A DNA stretch of 64,000 nt from positions 1 to 64,000 of the forward strand of contig QPMI01000162.1 in assembly GCA_004431415.1 (NCBI GenBank), read 5' to 3'. Of the stretch, positions 1,127 to 21,959 are shown piece by piece (within the stretch, counting starts at the first letter, position 1; the number at the start of each line of letters is the position of its first letter). The position numbers were made by a program, and so were the translations under genes. This DNA is from Cyanophora paradoxa CCMP329 (taxonomy: Eukaryota; Plantae; Glaucophyta). The notes below the pieces were generated by a model. That model worked only from the letters and a program-made list of their open reading frames with translations. It did not search any database and was not told where the DNA came from.

Positions 1127-1157
1127 TGCGCGATGGACCGGCCGTCCGGCGGCTCCT

Positions 1158-2440
1158 TTAACTCCCTCGGCGGACGGCCTGTTTCACGCTCTCGTAGTCG
1201 ATGTCCCTTTTCCTGTCGTCCTGATCAAGAAAGAACGGGGCACGCGATGGGCCCCGGCGACGGACCTGATGCTTCTGAGTTTTTCCCCGAAAATCTCTCG
1301 AAGACCTGGTACGTGAAGCCCCCGACATTTCGTCCGACGCGAGCTCGTCGAGGTTCACGTCGGCGAAGCACTCCTCGCGGAAGAGATGCTTGTTCGTCGG
1401 GGAGAGTTCCCGCCCCTGCCGCTTCTCGTTCTCCTTAAGGAGCGCCTTCTCGTGCTCGAACTTCATGATGGACTTGATGATCTCGCGGCGGAATTCGGCG
1501 TTGGGTGCGGGAAGGAAGATGCTGCGGAACGGGATTAAACGCGAAGGAATACGTGCAGGACGGCGTACTGCTTGCGGAAGCGACGAAAGAACTTGGCGTC
1601 CATGTCGAGCGGATAGTTGGTCGCGGCGATTACAATCGGACCGCGGCCGGGGTCGCCTGTGCGAACTCGCCGGTGCTCGACCTCGTTGTAGAGTTTGTCC
1701 ATCGCCGTCGCAAACTAACACCCTGTGAGTCGCGGGAGGCGTGCACGAGCACTCGAGCGTACCGTGTTCATGACCTGTTTCTGCAGTTCGTCCAACGACG
1801 CCTTGGAAGCTGGGACGGTCGCATCCACCTCGCTGGACCAAACGTTACCGAGAGCGCCATATTATGCATTGCAGGGAGCGAAAATATACGCACTCGCACA
1901 TTAAGATGACGTCCTGCACGTCGTAGGCGATGTCGAAGAACGCCTCGACGATCTTTGCGGCTTGCCCGTACTGCTGCAAGATCAGGGATGGAACGGGTGC
2001 GCGGGCGAACGGGCGAGCACATATTCGCTGATCTGCGACGGCTTGTACTCGAGGAAGCTGTAGCCGATGCGGCGAGCGAGCTCGCGCGCGAACTGTGACT
2101 TGCCTGTGCCCTGCGCAACGCGAATCAGAGAGCGCGAAGCGGGCCCCCGCGCGGAAGCACGGACCGGGCGGCCGAACAAGAGGACTCCAGTGGGCGAGAG
2201 ACGCTGAAGGGACGGCCACCCGTCCGCCGCCTCGTCTTCCGGGTCGGGTTCCAACCGTTTTGGACCGAGGGCTCCCTCGAGGTCTTCCATGTCCCCTCCG
2301 GAACGACTGGCGACGCAGAGTCGGATAAGGTTCATCGAGGCGCGGGCGACACGCTCGCACATAGGGTGCATGCTCTTGAGGCGCTCGTTGTCGATGAACG
2401 CGTTGCGGATGCCTTCGTGGACGCCGCCCTGAGCAGACGT
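1158..2440 (-). CDS. Classical-clade AAA+ ATPase (CDC48/spastin-like core), multi-exon; N-terminus unresolved
   Basis: After removing short introns (e.g. 2111-2164): Walker A GVLLFGRPGTGKS, Walker B VILMCDEVD, KQVMNTFATAMD, second region of homology IVIAATNYPLDMDAKFFRRF, then IFLPAPNAEFRREII and DVNLDELA. Confidence 0.85.
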
Positions 2441-2992
2441 CCGCCTTGCTCAACGCCGTTTCGAAGTCCACTTTTCTGTCGCGATCGGGAACGTGAGAAC
2501 GGTCGCCCCCGCCGCGAGGTGCGGTTAAGAGCACCGATCCATGTCGGGGGCGGGTCTCGGGCCATCGCGACCGCCATCGGGGTGCAGGTAGAGGGGTTGT
2601 TCGGATGGTAGATCGGATCTCGGGGTCGAGGAGGCATGACAGAAGGGCGTCGTCGCACGCAACCTTTTTCCGCCACGTGTGCTTCCAGCGACCTTCGGAC
2701 GGCTTGATGAGCTCATCTCCGCGCTCGCTTCTGCCGCCTACTCTCCTCGCTCTTCGACGCTCGATCGCCCTTGGGCGGGGCGGCGGGGCGCGGCCGCCGC
2801 GCCGGAGCCGTCGGCGCCGCGCCCGCCCCCGACGCGCGTGCTCCTCCACATCGAGACCGCTGCCAAGAGAGAAGTTGGGCGCGTTGAGCTTCTTCACGTG
2901 CGTTCGCGTCGTTTTCGGGCCATCATGAGCAGACAGGAAACGCCCGGAGCGCCGCGCCGATCTTGCGAATCCGCAGAAGCTGCGAGCGAGGG

Positions 2993-4306
2993 TCAGGGTG
3001 GCGCCCGCGCGACGAGCGGGATCGGGCGGACCACATCGACCAAATTCTTCTTCCCTTTTCGGTGTCGATGTGATCGACCGTCTTGTCGCGAAAGTCTTGG
3101 ACCGTCCCGACGTTTCGAGGGAGAGCATCTTCGCCCAGTCAGCTTGCCGTGTGGATCTTCATCGAAATCCGCGATCCTCTCCCCGACGAGGCCTCGAATC
3201 CGTTCGCTCAGGGTCTTGCTGCTGATCATGAACGACTCGACCGCTCGCCCGCCTTCTCCGCGCATCCTCCTCCATTATCCGCCGACCCTCGAAGTCGTAG
3301 AAAGGGCGACGTACTGCGACGAAAGAGCTCGTCGGCGGGCAAAGTGGGAATGGGATTGGGGGGCGTTGTACCTGGCAACCATCATGAAGGTCGCGGTGTT
3401 CTCCAGCTCGCCTGCCGTGAGGATGGAAGCTGCCGCCAACATGAACCGATCCAGCTCCCTGTACTTGCTCGGATCGTTCTTGATTTGCGAGATGAGATCC
3501 ACAGGTGCGGAGGAGGCGAGCCCGCGCATGGCGCGGACAGCTCGCCCGACGCGACGGGTTGACGCTGACAAAGGCGCTGTTGGAGGAGCTTTCGATCGCG
3601 TCCGCCACCACATTGCCCACTGGCGCGGCACCGTGCTCGACGGCAAGGTGCGGCCGGCGAATGCTGAGGTGGTCGAGGACGACCCGCCGAAAGCTGCCAA
3701 GCCAGCCATCCGCGAGATCTCGACGATGGCCTCCGCCTGCGCTCGACCGTCGCGTCGGCGTGACGCGTACGGCCCTTGCGCGGGCGGTCTGGATCGTCGT
3801 CCGAATCGTCGCCAGCTTCTTCGTCCTCCTCGTCCTCCTCGTTCTCCTCGTTTTCTTCTCCTCGGTCGCCGTCGCCGGCTTGCGTCGCCGGCCTTGCCGT
3901 CGCGCGTTCGCCTTCTTGGGACTCCTTTCTTCTGCTGGCGCTGCCCTTTCTTCGGCTTCTTTTCGCTCGCCTTGGCCGAGTCGAACACGCGCTTGAACAG
4001 GTCCACCGCTGGTTTGCTGCCGCTGCAGGCCTCCGGAAGCCCCGCAATGTCGTGGTACTTTGCACAGACGGAGCCTGTGTTCCCGAGATTGACGGCCTCG
4101 GGACTCCTCCGCATTCGCTGCGCGTCGAGCGGTTTACAACGAGACACTCTACACACTCGGTACGATGCGCACCACCCCGCAACCGCGTTCCTGTAGCTGC
4201 GGAAGCGCTCGTCCGAGATGAAGCACGGAAGACACAATCGGCGTCGTGCGCCGCAGTCGGGCTTGCAGAACGAGACCGGAGCAACACACCTGCTTACATA
4301 CGACAC
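2993..4306 (-). CDS. Hypothetical protein with Cys-rich N-terminus, Lys-rich and acidic tracts; disrupted by frameshifts or unresolved introns, possibly the N-terminal part of the AAA gene
   Basis: ORF 3275-4306 has CKPDC, CLPC and CASYRVC motifs and KKPKK. An acidic EENEENEEDEEDEE tract lies in another frame. Confidence 0.35.
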
Positions 4307-5280
4307 AATGACCTCCGCTGCGGATCGGCGTTAGCGGAGCAGGGCGCGCTCGTCAAAGCGCGCACCCGTCGGCTGGGGCGGCGGGGCGGCGTTCGGCGGC
4401 TCTGCGGGCCTCCGCTCCCGCCCGGCTGCATCCGCTACGCTTAACAGACTGCTCTGCGCGTGGAGCCGAGCTTTCACGGTACCCAGCCGCAACCGTGTAT
4501 CCCATCTGCTAAGACGCGTTCCAGCCGGTCTGCCGCGTTTTTTCGACCCTTTCGGGCATAGTTGACCCCCGGGCCCCTTTCCGACCGTAGCCCCGCATGT
4601 GGACGACAGCGCCGGCGAATTCGTGTGCGTTCGTTTCGTATGCAGCATGGCGCGCATGTCGGCGCGCCCTTGCGTGCCCTCGCGAGCGCGAACACGAGAG
4701 GTCGAGCGAACATCGTGCTCCACACCCCCCAGCCGTGCGTTACTGATACTCCTTGGCTCTCGAAAGATGACTCGCCATCCAACGTTAACACGTACAAAAG
4801 CTCTCTCGAACGCGCAAGAGTTCCTCGAAACCGGAGCAGTTAGTTGGCCATGGGGCCTCCTTTGCCCGCCCGCGTCCCCGCGGCCGTCACGGAGCCGCCC
4901 TGAATCCTTCTAAAGGCTCGACGCAGTCGTCCGCCGCCACTCTTGACGCGCTCGCGCAGATGCCGATCGGGCCCGCGGCGAAGACGATGCAATTGCAAGC
5001 CCTGCGACGCGGTTCGGCTCGTCGCTCCTCGCGCGACCTGCGCCGGGTCGGAGCGAGAGCTTATTATGCTTAGAAACAGGCCGCCGGGGCAGGTGGAGCT
5101 CTCAACGCGCACCTTGGGCGTCGTTCGTCCGCACCCCGGCCCGACGCCCGTTTCGTCTACCAGAGTCATCCCGCCGCGCAGATGGAGGTTATAATTGAGC
5201 TCGCGGAGTACGATGAAAACCGCCCATCGCCGCCCTCCGCCACTCGTCCCCTCACCCCCCCCCCCCCCCCCCCCCCCCGG

Positions 5281-5392
5281 CGGCCGTCACGGAGCGGCGG
5301 CGCGTTCGTCTAGGGCGGGGCGGCCGCGGCGCCGCCCGTACCCCCCTCGGCCGTCACGGAGCGGCGGCGATTCCGTCTAGGGCGCGGCCGGT
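5281..5392. repeat. 66-67-bp B-type tandem repeat, 2 copies
   Basis: Unit CGGCCGTCACGGAGCGGCGGCG..GTCTAGGGCG at 5281 and 5348. Confidence 0.9.
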
Positions 5393-5397
5393 CCGAC

Positions 5398-6633
5398 ATC
5401 TCTTTCCTTTGCACCCCCGGCGGCGCGAGGTGAGCCCCTCGCCCGCCGCCGGCGCCCCCCTAGAGGGAACTGACTCGGCTCCGTGACGGGCGGCGGGGGT
5501 AGGCCCGTGTCTGTTTCCTTCGTTCCCCCGGCGGCGCGGTGAGCTCTTCGCCCCCCGCCGGCGCCGCGCTAGAGGGAACTGACTCGGCTCCGTGACGGGC
5601 GGCGGGGGTAGGCCCTCATCTCTTTCCTTCGTACCCCCGGCGGCGCGGTGAGCCCCTCGCCCGACGCCGGCGCCCCCCTAGAGGGAACTGACTCGGCTCC
5701 GTGACGGGCGGCGGGGGTAGGCCCGCATCTCTTTCCTTCGTACCCCCGGCGGCGCGGTAAGCCCCTCGCCCGACGCCGGCGCCGCCCTAGAGGGAACTGA
5801 CTCGGCTCCGTGACGGGCGGCGGGGGTAGGCCCGCATCGCTTTCCTTCGTACCCCCGGCGGCGCGGTGAGCCCCTCGCCCGACGCCGGCGCCCCTCTAGA
5901 GGAAACTGAGTCGGCTCCGTGACGGGCGGCGGGGGTAGGCCCGCATCTCTTTCCTTCGTACCCCCGGCGGCGCGGTAAGCCCCTCGCCCGACGCCGGCGC
6001 CGCGCTAGAGGGAACTGACTCGGCTCCGTGACGGGCGGCGGGGGTAGGCCCGTGTCTCTCTCCTTCGTACCCCCGGCGGCGCGGTAAGCCCCTCGCCCGA
6101 CGCCGGCGCCGCGCTAGAGGGAACTGACTCGGCTCCGTGACGGGCGGCGGGGGTAGGCCCGTGTCTCTCTCCTTCGTACCCCCGGCGGCGCGGTAAGCCC
6201 CTCGCCCGACGCCGGCGCCGCGCTAGAGGGAACTGACTCGGCTCCGTGACGGGCGGCGGGGGTAGGCCCGTGTCTCTCTCCTTCGTACCCCGGCGGCGCG
6301 GTAAGCTCCTCGCCCGACGCCGGCGCCGCGCTAGAGGGAACTGACTCGGCTCCGTGACGGGCGGCGGGGGTAGGCCCGTGTCTCTCTCCTTCGTACCCCC
6401 GGCGGCGCGGTAAGCCCCTCGCCCGACGCCGGCGCCGCGCTAGAGGGAACTGACTCGGCTCCGTGACGGGCGGCGGGGGTAGGCCCGTGTCTCTCTCCTT
6501 CGTACCCCGGCGGCGCGGTAAGCTCCTCGCCCGACGCCGGCGCCGCGCTAGAGGGAACTGACTCGGCTCCGTGACGGCGGGGGTAGGCCCGTGTCTCTCT
6601 CCTTCGTACCCCCGGCGGCGCGGTAAGCTCCTC
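5398..6633. repeat. 109-bp A-type tandem array, about 11 copies
   Basis: TAGAGG(G/A)AACTGA.TCGGCTCCGTGAC anchors at 5461, 5570, 5679, 5788, 5897, 6006, 6115, 6224, 6332, 6441 and 6549. Confidence 0.97.
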
Positions 6634-6644
6634 GTGTCACCCAT

Positions 6645-6790
6645 ATCCCCTAAGTTGTCACTAAGATATATATAAAAAGCCGAATAGATAACGAGTACAA
6701 CTCTCATCCCCGCCCGCGCAGATGGAGGAGCCCACCGACTTCGCGGGGTACGAAGGAAAGAAGACAGAGCCCACCGCCGCCCTCCGCCGC
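6645..6790. promoter_or_regulatory. AT-rich spacer core between the A and B arrays, copy 1 (TATA-like or unwinding-element-like)
   Basis: AGTTGTCACTAAGATATATATAAAAAGCCGAATAGATAACGAGTACAACT, with imperfect inverted arms AGTTGT(C)ACT / AGTACAACT. A near-identical copy lies at ~9330-9475. Confidence 0.5.
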
Positions 6791-7060
6791 CCGTACCCCC
6801 CTCGGCCGTCACGGAGCGGCGGCGATTCCGTCTAGGGCGGGGCGGCCGCGGCGCCGCCCGTACCCCCCTCGGCCGTCACGGAGCGGCGGCGATTCCGTCT
6901 AGGGCGGGGCGGCCGCGGCGCCGCCCGTACCCCCTCGGCCGTCACGGAGCGGCGGCGATTCCGTCTAGGGCGGGGCGGACGCGGCGCCGCCCGTACCCCC
7001 TCGGCCGTCACGGAGCGGCGGCGATTCGGTGTAGGGCGCGGCCGGTCTCCTTCCTCGGCC
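6790..7060. repeat. 66-67-bp B-type tandem array, 4 copies
   Basis: Units start at 6803, 6870, 6936 and 7002. Confidence 0.95.
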
Positions 7061-7355
7061 GTGCACCGCCTCTACACCCTTCACGTTCAGCCTTTCCCGC
7101 AGTCACGTGCCCTCGTTCGCTTCCACATGCCCTCTACGACGCCTCTTCCGCCCCGTACCCCTCGATACCCCGGCCCGCCCGCCCAACTCCCGCCGTCGCT
7201 CGCGGATCGCGAGCCGACTGCGCGCGCTGTTCTCGAATATACGTGATTTGCGGATTCAAACGATACGCTGGACGCGTGGGGCGGGGAAGGCGCTTTCGCT
7301 CGAATTCAACTGACGGCGTGCTTAAAGGCGGAGCAGACGGTCCCTGGACGCACAT

Positions 7356-7852
7356 TTGCCATCGACCTCGACGATCATGGAGGCCTCTACCGTCGTTCAA
7401 AACGCCGCCCGTCGCATCTCCAGCGCCCTCGTCGCCGGTCGACCGATCGCCCTCGCGCTCCGGACTCCGACCCTGCTCAAGCGCGTCGCCGAGGTCGTCG
7501 AGCCCGCCGTCGCCAGCCTCCTCGTGCGCGCACACGTCGTCGTACTGCCGGAGCCGCGCGGCCACTGGCTCGTCCGCATCACCCCGCCCGGAGCTCAGGA
7601 GCCCGCCTCTTGGGGATCAGCGACCGAACTCCCCGCCTCCGAGAGCGCCGTCCTCGCCCTGCTCGCGGGATTGAGACCGTCGTCGCCCGCTTCGCGCGGG
7701 CCGAGGCGGACGAGCTCTCCGCAAAGATCCTCGCGGATCCGCGCATCGCGCACCTGCGGCGCCGCGTGGGCGTCACGCGCCAGGAGGTACCCGGAGCACC
7801 GAATTCGATCTTCTGTGTTTACGCGGTCGGCCGCGGCGCGAGCCGTAGTTGA
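7356..7852 (+). CDS. Small orphan protein between the two repeat modules, one apparent frameshift near 7670
   Basis: Protein-like MEASTVVQNAARRISSALVAGRPIALAL...LALLAG continues in another frame as IETVVARFARAEADELSAKILADPRIAHL. Confidence 0.4.
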
Positions 7853-8574
7853 CGCGTTCGTAGGCTCCGTACAGCTAGAAAACGCAGCGCTATAGCTGTA
7901 GCCACGCCGTGATGCAAATTTTAAGCTCGTCGACGTCTGTGATTCGTAAATGCGTACCCCAAATCCGCTGCTCATGGGAGCGAGCCGGGGCGAGCTTTGA
8001 GGCGAGCTGCGAGGCGCGTCGCTGTCTAGCGCTCGTTGCGGGCCTTGCGCTCGCACAGCGAGCGTCCAGCGGGCCAAATCGGCATGAGACCGGAACGTAT
8101 CGTTGCAGCGCCCCCAGCGCGACGCAGATGCGGCGGTTGGCGTGAGAGAGCCGCGGATCGGAGACCTCGGCGGCTCGGATCGCCTCGGCTTCGTGCCGGC
8201 GGATGTGGCGCGCGCCCGAGGTACTTGTAACCTTCGCCTCCGGCCGCAACAGCTTCCGGACGATAGATGGCGGAGGAATGGTGCGCCGTGCCATCGCGCC
8301 GCGCAGCGAGGTCGAGCGCCTTGATAGCTTACATCGCGCAGGCCTGGGTCGTTCGCGGCCGGCGCGGACGAGCTCGAGGCCCGGCGGCCGCGGCCTCGAT
8401 CGAGCGCCCGGAGGCTACGTGCGCGTTCTACCGACACGGCCCGAGCTCCGTGATAGGCGGCGTGGACCAACGCCGGACGGGCGCGCGGCCAACCTAAGCG
8501 GATCCGGAGTCGCGTTCGCGAGCTGTCGCCTTCGTTACGATAGGTGCGCCCGTTCCTCAGCGCCGGTGTCGCGT

Positions 8575-9318
8575 TAGAGGGAACCGACGCGGCTCCGTGA
8601 CGGGCGGCGGGGGTAGGTGCACCCCTCAGGGCCTCCTTCGTTCGTACCCCGCGTAGGCTATGAGCGCCGCGGCCGACGCCGGCGCCGCCCTAGAGGGAAC
8701 TGACGCGGCTCCGTGACGGGCGGCGGGGGTAGGCCCGCATCGCTTTCCTTCGTACCCCCGGCGGCGCGGTAAGCCCTTCGCCCGCCGCCGGCGCCGCCCT
8801 AGAGGGAACCGACTCGGCTCCGTGATGGGCGGCGGGGTAGGCCCGCATCGCTTTCCTTCGTACCCCCGGCGGCGCGGTAAGCCCTTCGCCCGCCGCCAGC
8901 GCCGCCCTAGAGGGAACTGACTCGGCTCCGTGACGGGCGGCGGGGTAGGCCCGCACCTCTTTCCTTCGTACCCCCCGCGGCGCGGTACGCCCCTCGCCCG
9001 ACGCCGGCGCCGCCCTAGAGGGAACTGACTCGGCTCCGTGACGGGCGGCGGGGGTAGGCCCGCATCGCTTTCCTTCGTACCCCCGGCGGCGCGGTAAGCT
9101 CCTCGCCCGACGCCGGCGCCGCCCTAGAGGGAACTGACTCGGATCCGTGACGGGCGGCGGGGGTAGGCCCGCATCTCTTTCCTTCGTTCCCCCCGCGGCG
9201 CGGTGAGCTCTTCACCCGCCGCCGGCGCCGCCCTAGAGGGAACTGGCTCGGCTCCGTGACGGCGGGGGTAGGCCCGTGTCTCTTTCCTTCGTACCCCCGG
9301 CGGCGCGGTAAGCTCCTC
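8575..9318. repeat. 109-bp A-type tandem array, 7 copies (first degenerate)
   Basis: Anchors at about 8575, 8691, 8800, 8908, 9016, 9125 and 9234. Confidence 0.95.
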
Positions 9319-9329
9319 GTGCTACCCAA

Positions 9330-9475
9330 ACCCCTGAAGTTGTCACTAAGATAAATATTAAAAGCCGAAAAGATAACGAGTACAACTCTCATCCCCGCCC
9401 GCGCAGATGGAGGAGCCCACCGACTTCACGGGGTACGAAGGAAAGAGGACGGAGCCCACCGCCGCCCTCCGCCGC
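9330..9475. promoter_or_regulatory. AT-rich spacer core, copy 2
   Basis: AGTTGTCACTAAGATAAATATTAAAAGCCGAAAAGATAACGAGTACAACTCTCATCCCCGCCCGCGCAGATGGAGG, a direct repeat of 6645-6790. Confidence 0.5.
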
Positions 9476-9479
9476 CCGT

Positions 9480-9735
9480 ACCCCCCCTCGGCCGTCACGG
9501 AGCGGCGGCGATTCCGTCTAGGGCGGGGCGGCCGCGGCGCCGCGCGTACCCCCCTCGGCCGTCACGGAGCGGCGGCGCCTCCGTCTAGGGCGGGGCGGCC
9601 GCGGCGCCGCGCGTACCCCCCTCGGCCGTCACGGAGCGGCGGCGCCTCCGTCTAGGGCGGGGCGGCCGCGGCGCCGCGCGTACCCCCCTCGGCCGTCACG
9701 GAGCGGCGGCGATTCCGTCTAGGGTGCGGCCGGTC
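9480..9735. repeat. 66-67-bp B-type tandem array, 4 copies
   Basis: Units start at 9488, 9556, 9623 and 9690. Confidence 0.95.
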
Positions 9736-9968
9736 TTCTCCCTCCACCGTGTACCCCCTCTTCGGCCATCGCGGTACTTCCTTCCCGCCATCGCAACGCA
9801 TATACCAAGCAATAACTCGCGTACACGCACAGGAGCGGGCGCTTTCCGCCGTCACAGAGCGGATGGGAATCCTCCAAGGCCCGGGTCGGCTCTGTCGAGC
9901 GCGTGAGCGAGCCATCTCCCGCCCCTAGGACAACTGCCCGTCGCTCCGTGACAATACCGATCCTTCGC

Positions 9969-12900
9969 TCAGGTACGCATCTTTGGCGGGCGACCGCGCC
10001 GCCGGGCAGGCTGGGCGCCGCGCCCAGCGCCGCCGCCGCGCGACGACGACGGAGACGAGGACGGTGTGGCAGGCGCCGGGAGGCCCAGCAGCCCCAGAAT
10101 GCGCTCGGGGCCGGTCCGGATCTCGACCGTGCCGTTCCGTCCCTCATACTCGACGGGATAAAGTGACGAAGGAAAGCTCCACTCGCGCGGTCCGCCCTCC
10201 TGGCTCGGCGCCCACGCGCCGCCGAAGCGCTTCAGCACCACGAAGCGCGACTCGTACTCGCCGCTCGGCAGGTCGATCGTCTGGACGAGGCGCGCGAACC
10301 ACACGCCGGGGAGCGGGCTCGCCGCGTGCGTCGCCAGCGCCGCCACCACCTGCCCCGCCGGGTACGGCGAGGCCGACCGCCAGTGCAGGTGGTAGAGGGG
10401 CGGCGCGGGGCCGGCGGCGGCGACGCCGACGGGGATGGGCTCCTGGGAGGCGGCGCCTCCGCGCCCGCGCGCGCGGCCGAGGCCGCGCCGGCCGCGCCCG
10501 CCGCGGAGGAGGCCGCGGAGCAGTAGTGCTCGTGGGCCCGCGCCCCGGCCGAGGTCTTAAACTCCTTGCGGTGCGTCAGGGCGGCGGCGCGCGGGGGCGG
10601 CGCGGGGCGGGGCGGGGCGGGCGGCTCACCCGATCGCAGGGCGCGCAGTACCTCTGCTCGGCGATGGCGAGCTCGCGCTCGAGGGTGTAGTCGGCGTCCC
10701 AGGCGCGCGGCCTCTCCGCCCCGTCCGCCGCCGCTTGGCCTCTTCGCTCCCGTTCGACGTGCCGCTCCCGCCCTCGCCGTCGTCCTCCGAGTACGAGCTG
10801 GAGCTCTCCGCGCCGCGCCCCGCGCGGGGACGCGCCGGGGCGGACGGCGGCGCGGGCAACGGCGCCGGCTCGTCGTCGGCGTCCTCCTCGGAGTCCCCGC
10901 CGTCGTCCCGCTCCGCCTCGGTCCCGCCGCCCGAGCTCCCGCCCGCCGCCGAGGGCGCGGGGATCCGGATGGCGGCGGCGGCGGCGGCGGCAGCGCCGGT
11001 GCCGGCGGGAGTTCGAGGCGGGGCGGCGACTCGGCGGAGGCGGCGCTCTCGCGGGCCCGGAGCCGCGCCTCGTCGTGCTTGACGGCGAGCTCCTCGAGGT
11101 ACGCCACCGCCGCCGCCGCCGTGCGCGCCCGCGCCGAGTAGTCGTAATTTTGCGTCGCCGTCAGCACCGAGTGGCCCAGGAGCTTGGCTGCGGGCGCGCG
11201 GGCGGGTGAGAGAGGCGGGGGGGGGGGGGGGGCGGGGGCGCTTCGGCGTACCCGTCCCGTCGACGACGGCGGCCGCGGTGTCGCCGGAGATGCGGTTCGC
11301 CGCGGCCTCGTCGCGCACGTGCGTCGTGATGATGGCCCGCATCGCCTGCGCCGTCACCGGTACCCCCGTCCACTTTTCCGTCACGCGCTTGACAAAGACG
11401 CTCCAGGCCGAGTCGGAGAGGGGCGCTCCCGAGGCGCTCGTGAAGAGCCAGCCCTCGTCCGCGCCCCCCGGCAGCGGCGGGAGGAGGAGGCGCCGGTACC
11501 GCTCGACGTACGAGGTGAGCGGCCGCTGCACAAACTCCGGGATCGGGTAGCTGATCGCCCCCGCAGTTTTCGCGGTCTTCGACGAGAGGACGGCCTCGCC
11601 CTGCCCCGCGTCCGCCCGCATCTGGGTGAGCGTGATTGTCCACGCGCCGCCGTCCCGCCGCAGCGTGTGGCCGATCCTGCGGGGGGCGCAGAGGGGCGGG
11701 ACGGGGCCCTCGCTCGGCGCGGGGCGACGGCGCGGCGCGGGGGGTACGGCACCTGAGGCGGCGGACGATGCCGACGCGCGAGGGCGTGGAGACGAGGAGG
11801 GAGAGGAGGACGCCCTCGCGGAGGGCGAGCGCCCTCTCGTACTCGAGCGGCGCCCGCTCCGCCGCCTCCAGCGCGTCCAGCCGCGCCGAGAGGAGCGCCT
11901 CGAACGGCACCCAGTTCGGTCCGCGCTGACGCCATTTCACGCCTTCGCGCTTCTCCTTTCTCAGCTGCGCGATCAGGTTCCGCAGCGGGCGCCCGTGGGG
12001 GCCCTCGGAGCCGGCGGCGGCGCCGGCCGTCCGCGCGTGGACAAAGGAGTGGGCCTGGAGGGCCGCCTGCGTGTACCCCGCCAAGGTGCCCGCCCGGACC
12101 CTGCGCTCGTCGCGGAGAAACGCGAGGAACCGCATCCACAGGTCGATAAAGTCGACGCGGGCGCCGGAGAAGAGGTCGAGCGTGAGAGCGCCGTCGATCT
12201 TCTCGCGGAGGGCGCAGTACCCCAGGAACCGGAGGAGCGTCGTCCGCTCGTTCGCCAGCGTCGTGGAGCGCTCGACGGCGGCGCCGGGGCGGTCGGGGTT
12301 GAGGAGGCGGGTGCGAAACTCTTCGTACGCGGCGAGCTGCGCCTTGAGCTCGCGCGACTGATCCTCCTCGCGCAGGCCGTACGGGGCGCCCCGCTCTGCC
12401 GGCTCGTCGCCCGCGGGGCCTTCGTCCTCCTCCTCGCCGTGCTCGTCGGCCGGGGGTACGGGCGGCGGGGGCGGCGAGGCCCCCGCCTCGGCGGACCCCT
12501 CGGGATCGGCGCCGCCCGAGTCCGACTCGGACTCGTCCGGCTCGGCGGGGGCGGGCGCCGGCGGGGCGCGGGCGCGCTTGGGGGGTACAGGGTCCCCGGC
12601 GGCGCCGAGCACCACGCGCTCGGGGTCCACGAGGGCGTCCACGTCAAAGAGCGTCGCCCCGCCGTGGTCCATGCTCTCCAGCATCCGCCGGTACGCCAGC
12701 CGCTTCTCGGCGATGAATTTCCCGTTGTCCTTTGCGATCTGATCCGCCATAGGGCCCCCGGGGCGGAAGAAGTGGATGGAGCCCTGCTCGAGCTCGTCCG
12801 ACCACGGAAAGCCCGTCGTCGCCTCGACGATCCCCACGTCCGCGATCCAGAGGACCCCTGCGCGGTGCGCGCGGCATGAGTTTGATCCCGTTACCCCCGC

Positions 12901-14376
12901 GGAATCGAACCGGGCCCCGCACAGATGCCGCACTGGAACCCGTCCCCCTGGAGGCGCCCACCGGCCGTCTCCTCGCGGTACGCGTGCGCGGGAAAGGCCG
13001 CCTGGGCGGCGTAGAGCAACCTGGCGTCGCAGGGCGCGCCGAGGCTGTCCCAGTACCGCGTCGTCCTGCGGGGGCGGCGCGATCGCGAGTGGCGCAGAGG
13101 ACGCGGGCTCGGGCGCGGGGGCGCGGGGCGCGGCGCCGTCGGACCTCGCGGCGCCGGAGAGCACGAGCAGCGTCCAGTGCCCGCCGCTGTTCCACGTCCG
13201 CTCCGCCCCGCGCCGCGCGATCGACGTCGAGACCGGGCAGAAGAGGGTACCCCCCCGCGCCACGAACCCCAGGGCCTTGCGCTGACGCCGCTCCTCGCCC
13301 GCCGCAGCGTAGCGCCGAAGGAGGCTCGTCAGAATCTCCACCGGCATGGGGTACAGGGCCCGCACGCGCGCGTTCTTGGCGCGGTGGAGCAAGAGGCTCA
13401 TCACGTTGGCGACGTGCGTGTCGGCGAGCCACTCGCGCGCGCCAAAGATACCGACCCTGGGTCCCGCAGGCGCCGGCGCGGGGGCCGCGGCGGCGACGGT
13501 GGCGGGGTCGGCGCCCTCTAGCACGAGCCGCTGGCGGCGAAAGTCGAGGTGGAGGTTCGGATCCCGGCCGGGGAGATCCTTCAGGAGGCTTTCGACGGCG
13601 ACGGCGCTGAGGAACGCCCAGCGGCGCGCCGAGCTCCGCGTTCGCTCCCCGTCGACCTCGGCGCCGATGCCGGCGTAGTAGGTGAGCGTCCTCGTGAGCA
13701 TGCCGAAGCGCTCGCGCCCGACGCTGAGCGTCGTAACGTTCCAGCGGTGCGGGCCGCCCGACGCGAGTTCCGGGAGGCGGCGCTCGATCTCCCGGCGGAG
13801 CGAGTTCGTGGCGCGCGAGGAGCCGTAGAGGAGCTCGGAGAGCGACGCCATGGGGACCCAGAGCTTCAGGTCCGGAGCCTCGATCCGGGTCGCCGGCAGG
13901 GCGTAGAGCCGCTCGCCGCCGACGCGCACGACGTACAGGTCGTAGCGGGAGAGGGCGCACAGGCGGCGGCGCTCGTTGGCGGCATAGAACGCGGTGGCAG
14001 CGGCGCGCTTCCGGGCCTCGTCGCTGTCCCGCCACGCCTGGTCGACGACCTCGAGCACGTACCTCATCGACAAGAGGCGCGGCGGGTCCTCGGGCGTGTA
14101 CTCGCCGCGCCGGACGGCCCCGAGGGTCTCCAGGAGGAGGATCGCGTGCTCGCTCGGCACGGGCCGCGCTGGGACGCCATAGCGCGCGGTGAGCACGTCC
14201 TGCACCTCGTCCTCGCCCTCGCCCTCGGCCAACGGCGGCTCGCCCAGGACGCGCGCGAGCTCGGCAGAGCAGACGGAGGGCCCGGCGTCGGACTTTAGCA
14301 CCACGAGCTGCGTCCGCCCCCACGGCCCGTCGAACTCGATCAGCTCGTACGCGTCGTGGACCGTCTGGAAGTACAT
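9969..14376 (-). CDS. Multidomain protein: possible Bro-N-like pair, Ulp1/C48-like cysteine protease, tyrosine recombinase, C2HC zinc finger, AT-hook (spliced)
   Basis: Introns 13066-13144, 12858-12922, 11677-11752 and 11188-11251 give a continuous frame. Protease motifs: EWLADTHV, GGHWTLLVL, RYWDSLG, QGDGFQCGIW. YR motifs: TPSRVGIVRRLR, SKTAKTAG, WLF, TAQAMRAI, AKLLGHSVLTATQNYD. The 3' part (CAPCDREFKTSAGARAHEHYC, RRRGRPPK) needs another intron and apparent frameshifts. Confidence 0.88.
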
Positions 14377-14609
14377 GGTCGCCGGCCGGGCCGTGCGGGC
14401 GGGCGACCCGGAGTGGGAGGGGCGAGGTGTTGGGATTCGACGTGCGGGGTGGGATCTATTTATGGGTTACCTCGCACCTTTAATCCTCGCGCTCGCGTCG
14501 CCGATGTTATCTTTAGTCCCTGCGCACAGGCCGCGCGCGGGCGGAAGGCCGACGGGAGCGGACGAGGCCGAATCGTATCCCCACGAGCCGAGGCCGCCAT
14601 CCCGCGACG

Positions 14610-14830
14610 TTGATCACGTACGCCCGCCCGGCTTCGTCCCCACCTACACCTTACCCCTCTGAAATTCGGCCAGGTTTGCCACCTAGGGGCGCCCGCCCTC
14701 GTCGCCCGCCTGCGTCGCGGCGGCGGCCGCCGCGCCCCGCCCCGCATTGACCACGTACGCCGGCCCGGCTTCGTCACCCCCACCCCCACCCCCGCCTTTG
14801 CTAATATTCGGCCAGGTCTTCCACCAAGGC
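14610..14830. repeat. Two ~80-bp direct repeats (period ~137) in the divergent intergenic region between the YR and Skp1-like genes
   Basis: TTGA(T/C)CACGTACGCC.GCCCGGCTTCGTC...ATTCGGCCAGGT occurs at ~14610 and ~14747. Confidence 0.7.
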
Positions 14831-15068
14831 GCTCGGCAACGCGCGGCGTCGGCGACTCATCACCGCCGCCCGCGGCGATGAGATCGGTGCGCCCCCGCCG
14901 GCTCGGGCTTCGGGGACGGCGCCGGGCGCCCTGCGACGCCGCGAGGCTCAGATCCGAACGCGGCGGCGCGGGAGGCGGAGGGCCGTCTGGAGCGGACGTG
15001 GCCGAACTCTCCCCAGAAATGCCTCCGATCTCGCTCCTCCTCGAGCTCGTCTTCGTCGGATGACAGCT

Positions 15069-15508
15069 ATGACACCGATGATCCTTCTCTGCTCCGACGG
15101 CGTCCATATCCCGTGCCCCGCGGCGCTCGCCGCCGACGCCCGCATCCTCTCCCTCGCCTCGAGCTGCTCCGACGCCGACGTGGCCCCGTCCCGCTCCCCT
15201 TCCGCTCCTCGCTCGTGTCGGCGGCCGGCGTCGCCCTCTCGCACCCCTCGCCCGCGGCGGCCGCCCTCGCCCCCGGGGCCTACCCCGACCCGCGGGCCGC
15301 CGCCTCGGCTCTCGTCTTCCTCGCCGAGCTCGCGATCCTCGCCGATTACCTCGACGCCCGGCGGCTCGAGCTGGCGTGCGCGGCGCTCGCCAGCAGCGCG
15401 TCCGAGCTCGCCATCAAGTCCGCCTGGGCCAAGGCGAGCGTCCGTCCGCCCCCGCCCCGCGGAAGCGCCCCTTTCAGGCTATCGGATCTTCTTAGGGACG
15501 TGTATTGA
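15069..15508 (+). CDS. Skp1/BTB(POZ)-like small protein with a frameshift near 15185
   Basis: N-terminal MILLCSDGVHIPC, VPLPFRS, and C-terminal LAELAILADYLDARRLELAC resemble the Skp1 motifs IxLxSSDG, IPLP and LFELILAANYLDI. Confidence 0.65.
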
Positions 15509-16429
15509 ACGGCCTCTCCGAGTACTGCGTGCACCGGCGTCTGCGGGGCCAGGGGTACAGATTTTGGGGACCCTTGGACCCCTCTCCGGGGACCTAGGGT
15601 TCGTTTTGAAACGAGGTCCGGGATCCGCACTAGCAATTTATTCGCGCTCTCCGGGCCCTCCCGAGCCCCTGCGACGCGTTTGTGCGGGGCCGACTTTTTG
15701 TTTAACGGGGTATTCGACGGTCCCTCAATCTGTATTGGATAATTTCGTGCTCCACTAATTATCAGCGTCCAGTGTTTTCCTATTACACGGTAGTGATGGC
15801 CCACTGATGGGCCAGTGATCATGATGGCCCAGTGATGGGCCACTGATGGTTCCACTGATTGGGTGATGATAGCTATAGATTTCCGGATCAGTCGATTTTC
15901 CGAGGAATTTCAAACTTCGAGGATTCTTATATATATGCCTATACTGGCCCTATAGTTGCCAACTTGCCATCTAGATTCAGAGTGATTCTAGAATCTAGAG
16001 CTGCGACGGCATAGGAGCTTTACTACTACGGAGCTTTGCATCTCGCACGCGTGTCGCGCGGGCTGTCCGCGGCCGACGGACCGGCGACGGATCAAGCCCC
16101 GGACTCCCGGCTCAAGTCCGACGGCCGCTGATCATGAGTGCGCGGGGGTCAGGGCCGGTCAGCCCGGTCAGGTCGCAAAATTGAAGTTTCTGCGGTGCCA
16201 GGCTGCCAGCTGCGCAGGCCTAGGCCGCCGCGGCTGGGTTATTGCAAGGGGGGAAAAGAAGACCGAAGGTCTTCCCCCCCTTGCTTCCCGTTCCCTCGCT
16301 TCAGCCAAAAGTTTTCTATGAGGCCGTTTTCGAGGGCCAGCTTGCAACGAAATTGTCGGTTATTCGCGATCCGATTGGCTCGGTGAACCGGTCAGCTCTC
16401 GACTTTCGAGCGTCGAATCGGAGGGGAAA

Positions 16430-16491
16430 AAGTGGTTTTCGAGGGGAAAACTAACTTCTCAAGTGGTTTTCGAGGGGAAAACTAACTTCTC
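16430..16491. repeat. 31-bp perfect tandem duplication
   Basis: AAGTGGTTTTCGAGGGGAAAACTAACTTCTC occurs twice. Confidence 0.85.
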
Positions 16492-17245
16492 TCTAACTCC
16501 GGTCTTCGAATTCCTTGCGCCGTTCTGCATGGAACCAGTTCTCCCTAGCTCTCTCCTCTACATTTCGGCTTCCTCGCAGTGCGTCGCGTACGCCTTGCTC
16601 TTCGTTGCGCGGTTCTGCATGGAACCACTTCTCTCTACGTACCTGTCAACGTCTCCTCTAGATTAGCTTGCAACGAAAAATGCGCCCCTGCCTAGCTGGG
16701 CCGCTGATCGTAGCCGAGGACAGGCCTTCGAGACCGTGCTCTTTCGCTGCGCTCGGGACGCCGCCGAATTCGAGCCTATATTGCAGAACCGCGTGCGGAG
16801 CTGCCCGCAGCCGAGCACGCCGGACGGGCCTGGCGCTCTTGTTGCGTTTGGCACCTGGCAAGCAGACCAGTTCGCGCGCTGCGCACGGCGCGCCGGTCGA
16901 CGCCGCTTGCAATTGTCTGCTCATTCAGGTTGAGGCTGCTGTCAGCGTCGGCGCTCCGACGTTAACGTTCGGCGTCCCGCGTTGCCGGGACGCCGAACGT
17001 TGCAACCTGCCGCGCGCGCTGGGCCGGGGTCGATCTACATCTGCCCCGTGCATGTTCGTGCCACTACTACTCTTTCATTAGATCCAGATTCCCCCCTTGC
17101 ACCCCCGGCGCGCCAAAACGCGGCCGGGCCACTAGTATATCGATCTACCGTGTAACACTTAATTAATGCGCCGGTAATTAATGCGTTTTTGGACCCGGAC
17201 CCCCAGTTTGGATAATAATGCGGTCCCGAATTAATGCGTTTTATA

Positions 17246-20200
17246 TTTGTTTTTGGTGAATTACCGGCCACAGTCTCTAGACACCAGCACTGCGGGGGCT
17301 GCCCAGGGGGCATAGAGACAAAATAGCAAAATAACTAAGACAAGAGCACGAAGAAAGATAAGACAAAGAGCCAAAATCGACAATAAAAAAGGAAAGACAC
17401 AGAGCTCGAGACAGATCGATTGCGAGAAGAGACGATAAATCGAGCAGATCTAGGGACAGAGGATAACTGACACGAAGAAGAGCCAGAGCTAGAGGATAAC
17501 TGACACGAAGAAGAGCCAGAGCTAGAGATACCATCAATATCAGAAGGAATTACATCACTAAGAAGCGGGGACAAAATTGAGAAAGATAAATAACAGGAAG
17601 AAGACAAGTAAGAGGAACAACAAGACGACATGGAGGCGGAGGCGAAGCAGGACGATGCGAAAGGGCAGAGCTACGGCACGAGGTCGAGGAGGACACAGGA
17701 GGCGGAGCAGGCGGATCAAGAGCAGGCAAAAGAACAGTCAAAGGAATCACTAAAGCCGGCCGGGGTCGAGGCGGGCAATCGAACTGCAAACGACGGCGAA
17801 CAACAGGTCGAGCACGAGGACTATAGCTAGTATTGAAACTAACTCTAGCATCAACACTACGATCAGAATCCGAACCAGACCGAACTAAACTAGAAGACGA
17901 AGAAGTACGCCGGCGCCGGCGGGATACGATCGCGACCAGCGAAGCAGAAGACAAGGACAAAGGCGGTAGTCCGGTATCAAGAACAAAGGCCGGAGGGTCC
18001 GGCCCGGCAAACCGCCGGGGGAAGTAGAAGGAGCCGCAGGCTCGGCAAGCCGGCGACGGGTACGACCACGAGTCCGGAAGGAGATCGGGGAAGCCGGTCC
18101 CGGAGCTGAGGGCCCAGGAGCAGAGCCAGGAGAAGGTAAGCCCGGCGAGAAATCTGACCCGGAGCCGGAACCCAGCGAACGACGACGACGAAGAGGCCCC
18201 GAGGAGCCACGACGGGGGAGCTACCGAGCAAAGTACTGACAGCCGGCGCCGAACACGGCGGCGGAGGTACCCCGCAGACAGTGGCAGGCGGAGAGTCCAG
18301 GGTCGATCGAGAGATCCGCCGACGGGAATGCGGCGGGGGCCGACGAGACGGAAGAGGCGAGGAGGGGCCGAGGAAGGGTCGGAGGCAGGGGAAGGGCCAC
18401 GAGCAGGTGACGGGGATCGCTGCCGGCGCCGAAGAGAGGGCAGCAAAGCAGGAGAAAGGTCGGGTGGCGCCGGAGCAGATGACACGGAGGTCATGGCCAT
18501 GGGCGGTGCAGAGAGAGACGAGCTCGAGGGCGCAAGGGCCCGACGAGGGCGCCGGCGGCGAATCTCACGAGCGCCAGGAAGCGGGATAGGACCCGCAGAT
18601 GGGACCCGAGGCGCCGAAGGGGGAGCAGGGAGCCGGAATGACGGGGAGATCGAAAAGAGGACAGTCTCGCCAACACTCGGAAGCGGGGCAGAGGCCGAGG
18701 ACCCGGAGCTCGAGGGGGGGAGGGAGGGCGGAGGAGGAGAGAGGAGGCGGCTATTCGAAGGGTATGGAGAATCGAGAGCGGAGGCGAGGGAGGCCGAAGT
18801 GATGGCGAGCTCTGGAGGCGAGGGGGCCTGCAAGCGGATCCGGGAAAGTGGATGCAGACGCAAAGAGACCGGGGACGTAGAGGCGGGAGGGGCATGCAAA
18901 AAGATAGTGCCGCCCAGCGTCACAGTTGCAGAAGCGGGGCAAGAAGGATGGGCTGAAGAGGGGGCTGAACCAGGAGGACGTCAGAAAGAGGGCCTCGCAG
19001 GGGCGGAAGTGGAGGAGCAAGGGGAAGAGGTAAGAAGGGGTATGGAGCTGCAAGATGACCAGGGACCTGCCGGGAACAGGCAAGTGAAGAGGCCCGTGAC
19101 AGCAAGTTGTAAGGAGGGAGGAGGCAGAGGCGGGGCCAGAGGGCCAAGGAGCACAGGGATCGGGACCGCAGGGAATGGGGGAAAGGAGCGTCGAGAGGGG
19201 CAGCGAGAGCAGGAATAGGAATGGGCCCAAGGGTCACTACAGGGGCCAGAGCAGGAGGGGACGGCGCAGGAGGCGGGCGACCACCAGGGATCCCCAACGG
19301 GACATTCCCACGAACGGCAAACTCCGCAGGATTCCGGAGGACAGAATCGATGTCACGCGAAGAGACGAGGTTGTCAGCACCGCCCGAAGAAGGAGCGCCG
19401 GACGAGTCAGAATCAGAGCTTGAACTAGAACGATGAGAACCGGTACCAGACTCTGAATCATGTGCGTCATCATCCGAGGCAGCCTGATCATCAGCGTCAG
19501 CAGCAGCCAAGCGAGCGCGCCGCTCCTCCAACAAGGCCGAAGCCTGCGAAAGGGTGAACTCGAGGTACGACATATTTCTGTCCCAGGCGGCAACAAGCGC
19601 GGCGCGGTTGTAAGAAGGCGCATCAATGTCAGCCTCCTCAAGATCGCACCGAGCGCGAGCAACCTGTTGGATGGAAAATACGCCAGCAAGGATCGCTCCA
19701 AGTGAGCGAAGGCAGAAGGCGGGGTTAACTTTACTGCGCAAAATGGGCCCAGATAAATCCGGAACCGAGAGGATGTGGAAGAGAGAGAGCTCAGGCACTG
19801 CGACCTCTTCACGCTCATCCGGTGGAAGAGTAGAAGCCCAGAAATTCAGGCGCTCACGAATGAAATCCCAGAACGAACGAGAAAGCGGGCACTCAGAGAA
19901 AACGTGCGCGTGAGAGCGAGCAGATCCGTCATTACAAACCCGACAGAAACGACGGCGGGGCGACTGTTGCTCGCCCAAACGATACAATTTGAAATGCAAA
20001 CGGTAAAGAGCATCGATCCAAAGCATCGGGAAACACTGAAGGACGACAAGATTAGGAAGACGGGACGGAGACAAGGCGCCGGGAAACCCCCACTTAGCAT
20101 CGGGCATCTGAGCGTGGCTAGACACATCGCGAAGCCGCTGGACCTCAAGGCAGTAGAAGCGACGAACAGAGGAGAGGCGGAGAGGGAGCATACGAGCGAA

Positions 20201-21846
20201 AGTGAACGCAAGATTATCAAGAGAAAGAAAGGCCGAAGGGCCTGCGCCAAGAACAAAAAGGCCAGGCAGGGTCCCGCGACGAAGAGAGAGGAAGACAGCG
20301 CTGAAGCAAACATGCAGCGGGAGCAAACGGGACAGAATTGAATTGGAGCTCGAGGATAGGCCCACAGGGTGGGAAGCCGCAGGGCGGCAAGGAACGCGCG
20401 GTATGTAGTCCAGCACCCGTGGAATTATCTGGTTATCGCGAACAGGGAAGGCAACAAAAGTACCACTTGGGCCTCGAAGGAGAGCAAACGAGGCGTCCGG
20501 TCCGGACCACCAGAGATGCTGAGGCGGCGATGCAGGGGCCTCGAGAACCTGGCGCCAAGTAGCCGGGAGCGCAGAACACAGACTAGGGAAAAAGGAGTGG
20601 AGGGCGGAGGAGGCAGCTGCTGGAGCCCGGAACCCCGGGCAGCACAATCCCAGATATCGCAGACCCGCAGCAAGCCGGACCGTGCACAGCGACTCCAGTC
20701 GACCTCGTCGCCGGGAGTACTGAACAGAGGATTGAAGAAAAGAGGTTGGGATAACACTTCGGGAGAGTTACGAGGTTGACACACGCCCTGGCGCTGAGCC
20801 CACTCGGAGAGAGTCCGCTTCCAAATAGGAGGCAAGTCAAGTCTGTCAAGTGGGAGGCGGAGCGAGACAAGGGCGGGGCCATAGGAAAAAGGTGCCAGCT
20901 GAGCGTCCAGTTTGCTCAAGAGGTACTCCTTCCAAGGAGCTGAACAAGAGGGGTCAGCGAGCAAGGCCACCCACTTCATTTTCAGCGATAACGAAAAAGC
21001 TCGAATATCCGGGCAGTTGAGACCACCTTGACGCCACGGCAGAGGAGAAATATACTTCGAAAGCTGCCCGCTCACGCCAGCAAAAGCGCGAAGCTTCTCT
21101 TGCCATGTCGAATACTGAGCATCAGGGGGTCAAGCAAATATAGAGCATAATGTAGGGACCAATAAATACAGCCCAGGCAAGGAGAACGCCGGAACGCATC
21201 GGCATGCGATAAGTCTTCGCTTGCTGGACACGGATATCAAGAGCAGCGGTCTTTTTCCGCCAGAACCGAGACAGATCGGGCTCTAGTGGAAAGCCCAGGT
21301 ATTTTCGAATTTTTTCAGCGGGAGGGAGATCCGTCACCTGAAGACGCCGCCAGGGGCAGTCCTCGACGCTAGGCCAGGCATGTGCGGGGATATCGCGGAG
21401 TGGAAGAAGGCTAGATTTCTCGAGATTAATAAGAGCTCCAGAGAGCCGGCAGTATTTATCAAAGCACTCTTTCCAGAAAGGCAATTCGGTAAAAGACGAG
21501 ATTAAAGGAACCGTGTCGTCTGCAAACTGGAGCACCTTGCAAAGAGAGCTAGAGGACAAGCGGACACCTCGTATACGAGCATCAGCATTAATCAAAAGGG
21601 CTAAAAGGTGTGTGCACAAATTATATAGATAGGGCGAAAGGGGGCCACCCTGACGTACACCGCATCGAATGGGGAAAGGGGCGGAGGTCCAGCCGTTAAT
21701 GTGAACAGAACCCTGCAGATCAGAGTAGAGCAGGCGGACCCACTTGATAAATTGGGACCCGAAACCGAACTGTTCGAGCGACCAGAAAAGGAAGCTCCAG
21801 TTAACGCGGTCATAGGCTTTTGAAAAATCAAGAAATCCGAAGCACA
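17246..21846 (-). mobile_element. 5'-truncated L1/Tx1-like non-LTR retrotransposon
   Basis: 10-bp TSD GCGTTTTATA (17236-17245 and 21847-21856), an A-rich tail at the left end, RT and zinc-finger coding sequence, and a long 3' region shared with 48719-50055. Confidence 0.93.
18920..21845 (-). pseudogene. LINE ORF2 remnant (RT C-terminal half plus zf-RVT-like region), frameshifted near 21120 and 20645
   Basis: FLDFSKAYDRVNWSFL, GVRQGGPLSPYLY, LQFADDT, KYLGFP, LPWRQGGLNCPDI, CRVC...HVFSEC. Confidence 0.92.
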
Positions 21847-21959
21847 GCGTTTTATAACTTTTGGGCTTGTATGGGGGGGGGGGGTATTTTACTGGAAATT
21901 AGAAAATTAGGCCTTAGGCTGCGGGCGGGCCTGCAGTACAAGCTAGCGCTGCCACGTAA

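Follow-up and report, generated by a model that had tools for sequence, protein, structure and literature searches.

The described systems closest to the one we present here are found in oomycetes, where CryptonF-2_PS and some CryptonS elements carry a tyrosine recombinase together with a C48/Ulp1-related peptidase (PMC3212892, within its accessible text). Our subject is a locus of the glaucophyte Cyanophora paradoxa CCMP329, studied in a stretch of 64,000 nucleotides (nt) which we call the window (assembly GCA_004431415.1, contig QPMI01000162.1, positions 1–64,000, forward strand). On its minus strand, in positions 14376–9969, a gene with predicted introns codes for a protease of the CE clan fused to a tyrosine recombinase. 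We consider it probable that this gene belongs to a multicopy tyrosine-recombinase DNA transposon, likely silenced by its own spliced antisense RNA. The locus has a clear domain order and the catalytic residues of both enzymes; it exists in near-identical copies, is linked to a second gene, has repeat cassettes at its flank and shows splicing on the plus strand. The first-pass annotation had mentioned neither the oomycete precedent nor the copies, the second gene and the antisense transcript.

Comparison with known systems

Cryptons have been proposed to excise as circles and to reinsert at microhomology, and they have terminal direct repeats of 4–6 bp and no terminal inverted repeats (PMC3212892, accessible text). 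Like CryptonF-2_PS and CryptonS, the window element is a eukaryotic DNA element with a tyrosine recombinase, a peptidase (C48/Ulp1-related there, of the CE clan here) and no reverse transcriptase (RT). However in CryptonS, as that text describes it, the peptidase is an additional protein, whereas here it lies in frame, N-terminal to the recombinase. CryptonF has a GCR1_C domain, which was not detected in four near-identical Cyanophora proteins (P0001–P0004) described below. Other differences from the oomycete Cryptons, as far as that text describes them, are a Gln at the His-II position, a second open reading frame (ORF2), the repeat cassettes and the spliced antisense RNA. GCR1_C, DUF3504 and DUF3435 gave no Pfam match on P0001–P0004 at E up to 10, in searches where HMMER filters drop weak matches. 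RT families were absent from the ORFs scanned between 1161 and 15909 and matched only at 21125 and 55625; the element has a recombinase without RT, as Cryptons do, and no RT/RNase H beside it as in DIRS, Ngaro and VIPER. It would work like a Crypton but we do not file it as one, because none of the three domains was detected, its ends are undefined and our tree has no Crypton sequences.

Ginger1 and Mutator transposases are fused to an Ulp1 or OTU protease, interchangeable between families, for which a role in transposition has been proposed (PMC2836005, accessible part). Ginger1 resembles our gene by the fusion of a protease to a mobility enzyme, and its gene has 1–4 introns. It has a DDE integrase, terminal inverted repeats and a C-terminal protease, whereas the window gene has a tyrosine recombinase and an N-terminal protease. 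The pairing of a recombinase with an Ulp1-like protease is already published for oomycete Cryptons, as are intron-bearing Ginger transposases with Ulp1 or OTU domains. The first-pass annotation also named Zisupton among DDE-type transposons with Ulp1 domains.

In Polinton-like viruses and phaeoviruses, tyrosine recombinases have been proposed to integrate circular DNA into the algal genome; the accessible portions of the papers concerned describe no protease fusion for them, unlike the window gene (PMC4642659, PMC12220804, PMC13236599). In contrast to these viruses, the window gene has predicted spliceosomal introns, and Pfam, which divergent capsids escape, detected no family of capsids, packaging ATPases or DNA polymerases among the 63 ORFs of the window. 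With XerH, Cre and lambda Int the recombinase shares the core-binding and catalytic fold, the R-K-R-H-Y residues and a His-to-Tyr spacing of 9; it differs from them by an identity of 12–19%, by Gln or Lys at His-II and by the extra protease and nuclear DNA-binding modules. In the literature searched, which excludes subscription journals and Repbase reports, we met with no account of a recombinase-protease element from Cyanophora; PMC9940879, PMC12477816 and PMC13465315 (Crypton definition) offer no closer match in their accessible text.

The sense-strand gene

Translation starts at the ATG at 14376 of the minus strand. Exon 1 (13145–14376) codes for an N-terminal region of about 290 residues, with two modules, and for the first half of the protease with its catalytic His. 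Exon 2 (12923–13065) has the protease Asp (WDS), Gln and Cys (QGDGFQCG). The tail of the protease, a low-complexity linker, the core-binding domain of the recombinase and its Arg-I (PSRVG) are found in exon 3 (11753–12857), the recombinase Lys (SKTAKT) and QxxR in exon 4 (11252–11676). Exon 5 (10630–11187) contributes the His (LGH) and Tyr (QNYDY), an acidic linker and the first half of a zinc finger. The four predicted introns between them are all GT-AG: 13066–13144 (79 nt), 12858–12922 (65 nt), 11677–11752 (76 nt) and 11188–11251 (64 nt). Six of the eight splice sites, including donor and acceptor of intron 1, fall in the top 4% of candidate sites, as scored by a matrix which was trained on contig-backed introns of the opposite (plus) strand.

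Removal of the four introns (13144–13066, 12922–12858, 11752–11677 and 11251–11188) gives a single frame with protease and recombinase, collinear with its relatives at all four junctions. The third-position GC content (GC3) of exons 1–4 is 0.93–0.96 in this frame. The protease motifs start at 13182 (GHW, with the His codon at 13179–13177), 13052 (WDS) and 12950 (QGDGFQCG), those of the recombinase at 11784 (PSRVG), 11582 (SKTAKT), 11348 (QAMR), 11179 (LGH) and 11152 (QNYDY). In the spliced protein they correspond to His400, Asp417, Gln450 and Cys456 and to Arg819, Lys860, Gln937xxArg940, His974 and Tyr983. When any single intron is kept, the catalytic motifs downstream of it are lost. The first-pass annotation had claimed that the catalytic exons are hidden until four introns are removed; all motifs are indeed in place, and the introns hold at the sequence level.

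Catalytic residues and folds

The recombinase has the tyrosine recombinase set R-K-QxxR-H-Y, with Gln at His-II. We have counted the conservation of these residues in the 74 of 153 representatives that span all six catalytic positions. Five columns are conserved (R in 74, K in 73, R in 74, H in 74 and Y in 72), whereas His-II is variable (K 30, H 21, S 7, N 7, Q 5, R 2). Since this position is free across relatives, QxxR is tolerated and is not a sign of decay. The protease has the His-Asp-Gln-Cys order of the CE clan.

The folds come from a model of a paralogue, P0005, which is 60% identical to the window protein and was modelled with a 103-row alignment. Over residues 565–906 it matches XerH with Z 13.5 (root mean square deviation, rmsd, 4.7 over 281 aligned residues), Cre with Z 12.0 (rmsd 4.9, 274 aligned), and integron and Tn1549 integrases. 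Residues 255–416 match CE-clan proteases with Z 6–7.9 (best rmsd 3.3, 130 aligned). SENP, a NEDD8 protease, bacterial deubiquitinases and the African swine fever virus protease lie within about 2 Z units; as these deSUMOylases, deneddylases and deubiquitinases are tied, the substrate cannot be read from the fold. We do not place the recombinase among the telomere resolvases: ResT-TelK has no Pfam match and TelA reaches only Z 6.4 on the same model, against 13.5 for XerH.

Profiles detect these domains poorly. Single exons and the unspliced frame have no Pfam match. On P0001–P0003 Phage_integrase reaches E 0.02, below the cut-off; a match to phrog_1 has E 4e-4. The C48 profile PF02902 has no match on P0001–P0004; in relatives P0121 passes its cut-off and P0144 is weak. 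The model supports assignment of the protease to the CE clan, and at this level it may be called Ulp1-like. The "Ulp1-like" label of the first-pass annotation stands at clan level. Its prediction of C48 and integrase folds was borne out at clan level, on the paralogue. Motifs, family alignment, P0005 folds and a collinear distant relative agree on the fusion itself. For the N-terminal region of about 290 residues the nearest named Atlas cluster is Bro-N (score 0.86), a weak lead; comparison of this region with its marine counterpart by hhalign gave E 0.009 and a probability of 4%.

Copies, paralogues and the gene tail

Using the N-terminal part of the recombinase as query, we have found four near-identical proteins on three contigs, with 98–100% identity over the query, among 7,988 scored candidates. 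All are gene models labelled Cyanophora paradoxa. In one of them, P0002, the first 1,020 residues are those of the spliced window protein and the four introns are the same; this is the agreement of a gene predictor and not a proof by RNA. Diverged paralogues with 43–71% identity have the same species label. In the spliced coding region 15 of 22 variants are synonymous and 17 of 22 fall in third positions (from the 40 of 75 variant rows listed). The recent function suggested before agrees with the four copies and the mostly synonymous variants, but it gains nothing from the splice joints listed below, which include no sense splicing.

These copies might also be a domesticated host gene family, in which segmental duplication has multiplied the gene of a chromatin protein that carries both a protease and a recombinase domain. 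Introns of host type, the codon bias and the presence of several diverged paralogues in one genome would agree with this, and domesticated Crypton genes exist (PMC3212892, accessible text). We consider it very improbable, since near-identical copies are dispersed together with a second gene, the setting is rich in repeats, the family is patchily distributed and the catalytic set is intact, unlike that of the domesticated DUF3504 genes, which have mostly lost it according to the same text.

The end of the gene is less regular. A fifth predicted intron (10565–10629, 65 nt, with a strong donor and a weak AAG acceptor) splits the zinc finger. The last exon (9969–10564) codes for the second half of the finger, a domain of about 100 amino acids (aa), an RRGRPP motif which we take to be an AT-hook, and the stop. 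The finger has the pattern C-x2-C...H-x3-C and matches zf-C2H2_jaz at E 0.04, below the cut-off. When only four introns are removed, finger and AT-hook are out of frame: besides intron 5 (10630–10565), GC3 indicates frame switches at about 10960, at 10718 and at about 10516. All three single-base switches sit in homopolymer runs, the models P0001 and P0004 read through all of them and P0003 through two, and contigs carry an extra base at 10516/10517 and at 10718; for these reasons they are probably assembly errors. Intron 5 is spliced in P0001 and P0003 and read through in P0004. Zinc finger and AT-hook are present as candidate motifs, as had been claimed, but their place in the fusion requires the fifth intron and three frame switches. 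An uninterrupted frame is demonstrated as far as about 10962, so that the claim of an intact frame holds up to there and not beyond. Additional introns as the cause of the switches were rejected, with no candidate near 10420–10516 and weak purine-rich acceptors near 10960 and 10720. A Tudor-like C-terminal domain (hhalign E 0.08) is unsupported.

Probable antisense splicing

We have compared contigs of four runs at the locus, one DNA-like (X1) and three RNA-like from two studies; 15 of 113 joints are listed. Twelve short joints are present in all three RNA-like runs and absent from X1. Each of the 12 is a plus-strand GT-AG intron, which by chance would happen in 1.2% of cases per joint. They define 12 introns of 55–69 nt (12086–14673) in a spliced plus-strand transcript (12045–15115). 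In addition, one RNA-like contig continues unspliced across sense intron 1 (piece 13032–13245), as expected if it originates from the other strand. The RNA over the gene is likely antisense, because all 12 short joints are plus-strand, no sense intron appears among the 15 joints listed and the contig crosses intron 1 unspliced.

A contig from this region extends to about 15050–15115, into ORF2. In the other direction the transcript would occupy 9700–12044: contig pieces end at 9833, 9973, 10188 and 10639, which coincide with plus-strand splice signals, although they derive from slightly diverged copies. These ends suggest an antisense transcript which spans the whole gene from a 67-bp repeat array, with the last 67-bp repeat as its likely start. 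The antisense intron 12865–12924, backed by contigs, overlaps sense intron 2 (12858–12922) almost exactly, and within 10565–10639 a probable antisense intron nearly matches sense intron 5. In both places (12858–12924 and 10565–10639) the same DNA would be intronic either way. The longest ORF starting with ATG before ORF2 has 237 aa. We rejected a long overlapping protein gene on this strand: its longest ATG ORFs have 237 and 200 aa and their codon pattern mirrors the sense frame.

One might suppose that the sense gene is a silent relic and that the functional unit is the plus-strand ORF2 mRNA, with a long, cryptically spliced leader crossing the gene. The plus-strand direction of the 12 short joints, the contig which joins antisense region and ORF2, and the frame switches in the window tail would all suit a relic. 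Yet the sense frame keeps its GC3 of 0.93–0.96, 15 of 22 variants are synonymous, all catalytic positions are kept, and translation of ORF2 from such a leader would be hindered by the 11 or more ATGs upstream of its start. We judge it improbable.

ORF2, repeat cassettes and surroundings of the gene

ORF2 (15069–15508, plus strand) has a frame switch near 15190 in the window and is unbroken in P0293 and P0294. Its models are numbered next to recombinase models in three of the four near-identical copies. ORF2 may resemble Skp1/BTB, an impression to which profile and structure-sequence searches gave no support (no supporting match in Pfam, PDB sequences or NCBIfam).

Both repeat cassettes lie downstream of the recombinase gene. 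Cassette 1 (8673–9724) has a 109-bp array, an AT-rich linker and a 67-bp array. Cassette 2 (5399–7042) is 91% identical to it over about 1.2 kb and would also belong to the element. The arrays share the motif YRTCACGGAGC-N14-TAG, oriented away from the linker on both sides. With one mismatch or less we find 31 occurrences of the 11-mer, against 1.2 expected; 30 of them lie in 80–9953, and TAG is at a fixed spacing. Structured RNA or DNA hairpins were rejected as an explanation of the repeats, with positive z-scores and only two below-threshold Rfam matches. A small ORF between the cassettes (7326–7892, plus strand) has no family match.

Two palindromes in AT-rich stretches, at 279–306 and 15970–15999, bracket the block of repeats and genes. 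They have 11-bp arms with spacers of 6 or 8 bp, the shape of recombinase sites; however their sequences differ and they may be due to chance. An AAA ATPase gene (1161–3158, minus strand) contains introns and is apparently frameshifted, with a weak Pfam AAA match (E 0.03). Its GC content is below that of the element, and copies of the repeat motif lie on both sides of it (80–90 and 4885–4895). A link between it and the AAA gene beside the marine locus L038 (E 6.3) is unsupported.

The transposon reading has to be weighed against several points. We found neither the ends of the element nor a target duplication or empty sites, and comparison of flanks gave only short GC-rich matches. The folds are judged on a paralogue instead of the window protein; the mean confidence of that model (predicted local distance difference test, pLDDT) is 65.8, mostly above 85 in the recombinase, mixed or low in the protease, whose Z-scores are middling. 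A single-sequence AlphaFold model of the unspliced recombinase frame of the window (pLDDT 44) was uninformative and was not used. The window copy itself has three frame switches in its tail and one in ORF2. As for the transcript, the RNA nature of the runs is a guess, none being recorded as RNA; contigs cannot give its strand, start or level, and a single contig over both genes does not prove a single transcript. None of the four sense introns predicted by the first-pass annotation, and no sense-strand joint at all, is among the 15 joints listed; these neither show nor exclude sense expression. Finally, antisense splice sites are only marginally more numerous than in synonymous shuffles: at three thresholds, 13, 14 and 49 of 300 shuffles attain the observed counts, and the training set was small and imperfect. 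Antisense splicing may thus be incidental.

Relatives in other organisms

Searched without profiles, a set of 1.84 billion representatives yielded 228 matches at E up to 0.001, of which the best 150 are listed. Domains were counted with locally built profiles, which their seeds match by construction. CE protease and recombinase occur together in 11 of the 325 sequences with any domain match, nine from Cyanophora and two metagenomic (P0022 and P0069). In 18 of the 325 the recombinase is followed by another domain, with an invariant G-D-C and a near-invariant late His in 13 sequences and no profile match; by its motifs we call it OTU-like. The CE and OTU-like domains are never found together. 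P0002 and the metagenomic P0022 align continuously over protease, linker and recombinase (25% identity, 638 columns, E 2e-30), so that the fusion is old; the locus of P0022 was looked for but not found. In a quick tree of 69 of the 148 recombinase-bearing representatives, with midpoint root, the Cyanophora and P0022 clades branch first in a group of 52 rows (support 99), whose other members have no CE domain. The marine relatives lack the CE protease, and some have the OTU-like domain instead.

The distribution of the family is patchy. One marine-type fragment is labelled Prymnesium polylepis, whereas relatives labelled Botryococcus and Gefionella are more distant. Chromodomains are fused behind the recombinase in P0088, P0022, P0069 and P0018, with two in the Gefionella protein P0088, which suggests chromatin-guided targeting in this family.

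Some of the 80 marine loci have uninterrupted ORFs of 1,300 aa, and six have inverted repeats of at least 60 nt. Two of them, L003 and L032, are 23-kb contigs with inverted repeats symmetric about the contig centre. L032 (1–20847) has tandem repeats of 170–180 bp and encodes, besides a family recombinase that bears the OTU-like domain, a ResT/TelK telomere resolvase (E 6e-15), an HNH protein, a helicase and perhaps a stand-alone protease; it is a candidate linear replicon. L003 has perfect inverted arms of 5 kb or longer (2394–7460 and 16078–21144) with a primase/helicase-like ORF (weak PHROG match) and 181-bp repeats with a palindromic motif; between the arms lie the recombinase gene and an inserted DDE transposase. 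Recombinase matches occur on both strands in six of the 80 loci (L011, L018, L019, L039, L040 and L069); in L018 and L039 two convergent recombinase genes flank two small shared ORFs. Runs of TTAGGG-type telomeric repeats are found near family recombinase genes in five loci (L010, L055, L066, L067 and L068).

Such loci raise the question whether the window gene belongs, as integrase module, to an endogenous DNA virus or to a self-replicating linear element (Polinton-like, phaeovirus-like or plasmid-like) which has lost its structural genes or keeps them apart, has gained introns and uses its protease as a viral deconjugase. Proteins of the algal giant viruses Pyramimonas orientalis virus (E 7e-5) and Tetraselmis virus 1 (E 9e-5) lead the viral fold search, and the Bro-N lead, weak as it is, points the same way. 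So do the symmetric inverted repeats of L003 and L032, the resolvase and helicase of L032 and the weak primase match of L003; phaeoviruses have been proposed to integrate by a tyrosine recombinase (PMC13236599, accessible text). On the other hand, no relative was found in five of five viral-contig scans, nor in prokaryote genomes and phage records. Families of capsids, packaging ATPases or DNA polymerases were not detected among the 81 marine-locus ORFs, as was the case for the 63 window ORFs, with the same limit for divergent capsids. Inverted repeats of at least 60 nt occur in only six of the 80 marine loci, other neighbours look cellular (SET, Clp protease, RING, ERCC4), and we found no terminal inverted repeat flanking the window copy. 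We consider this origin unlikely; the virus-derived character proposed earlier is plausible by fold matches and Bro-N but finds nothing in viral contigs.

A broader reading is tentative and to us somewhat doubtful. The family would be a new superfamily of eukaryotic tyrosine-recombinase elements distinct from Cryptons, present in glaucophytes, haptophytes and other protists. It would bridge linear replicons free of introns, which have long terminal inverted repeats and a primase, helicase and telomere resolvase, and chromosomal transposons rich in introns. Its recombinases would carry swappable CE and OTU-like deconjugases of the ubiquitin family of tags, and in this alga it would be controlled by a selected, multi-intron antisense RNA of about 5 kb, encoded by the element and doubling as mRNA of the Skp1-like ORF2.

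A possible mechanism

If the locus is a transposon, the N-terminal modules, zinc finger and AT-hook of its protein may serve to bind chromatin and the ends of the element. The chemistry of tyrosine recombinases is well established. On the model proposed for Cryptons (PMC3212892, accessible text), the recombinase would cut out a circular form of the element and put it back at a site of short microhomology. At the site of reaction the protease might act on chromatin, on repair proteins or on the recombinase itself and strip them of SUMO, NEDD8 or ubiquitin. By analogy with Ginger1 and Mutator (PMC2836005, accessible part), removal of such tags may ease repair or allow escape from silencing. That CE and OTU-like domains are swapped within the family is easier to reconcile with a deconjugase than with a protease of capsid maturation. 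The antisense RNA, with the 67-bp array as its possible promoter, would keep the sense gene from being expressed and might carry ORF2 as well. Intron gain likely followed the entry of the lineage into its glaucophyte host.

Other features of the window

The neighbourhood includes RT genes of the long interspersed nuclear element (LINE) and long terminal repeat (LTR) types. ORFs of a Gypsy-type LTR retrotransposon (RT, RNase H, integrase) occupy 54658–61000 on the minus strand. Two inverted copies of about 1.3 kb (17243–18550 and 48719–50058) are about 95% identical, and the left of the two is situated downstream of the LINE-type RT ORF at 21125–21898. A coding-like ORF of 382 aa (21963–23108, minus strand, GC3 0.82) has no significant Pfam match; it presumably resembles a pogo-type DNA-binding region.

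Significance

The novelty of this element lies in its lineage, its swappable proteases and its antisense architecture, rather than in the pairing of domains alone. Sampling of eukaryotic DNA transposons with recombinases is poor beyond fungi, oomycetes and animals, and the marine relatives hint at linear elements of a class yet to be explored. Dense antisense splicing as seen here is a candidate switch for self-regulation; it is also a warning for genome annotation, since RNA evidence would here back the wrong strand. Why mobile elements repeatedly gain SUMO or ubiquitin proteases is an open question. In this family the role of the protease is directly testable, because both enzymes are in a single chain, young copies are present in a culturable alga, and relatives have either no protease or a different one.

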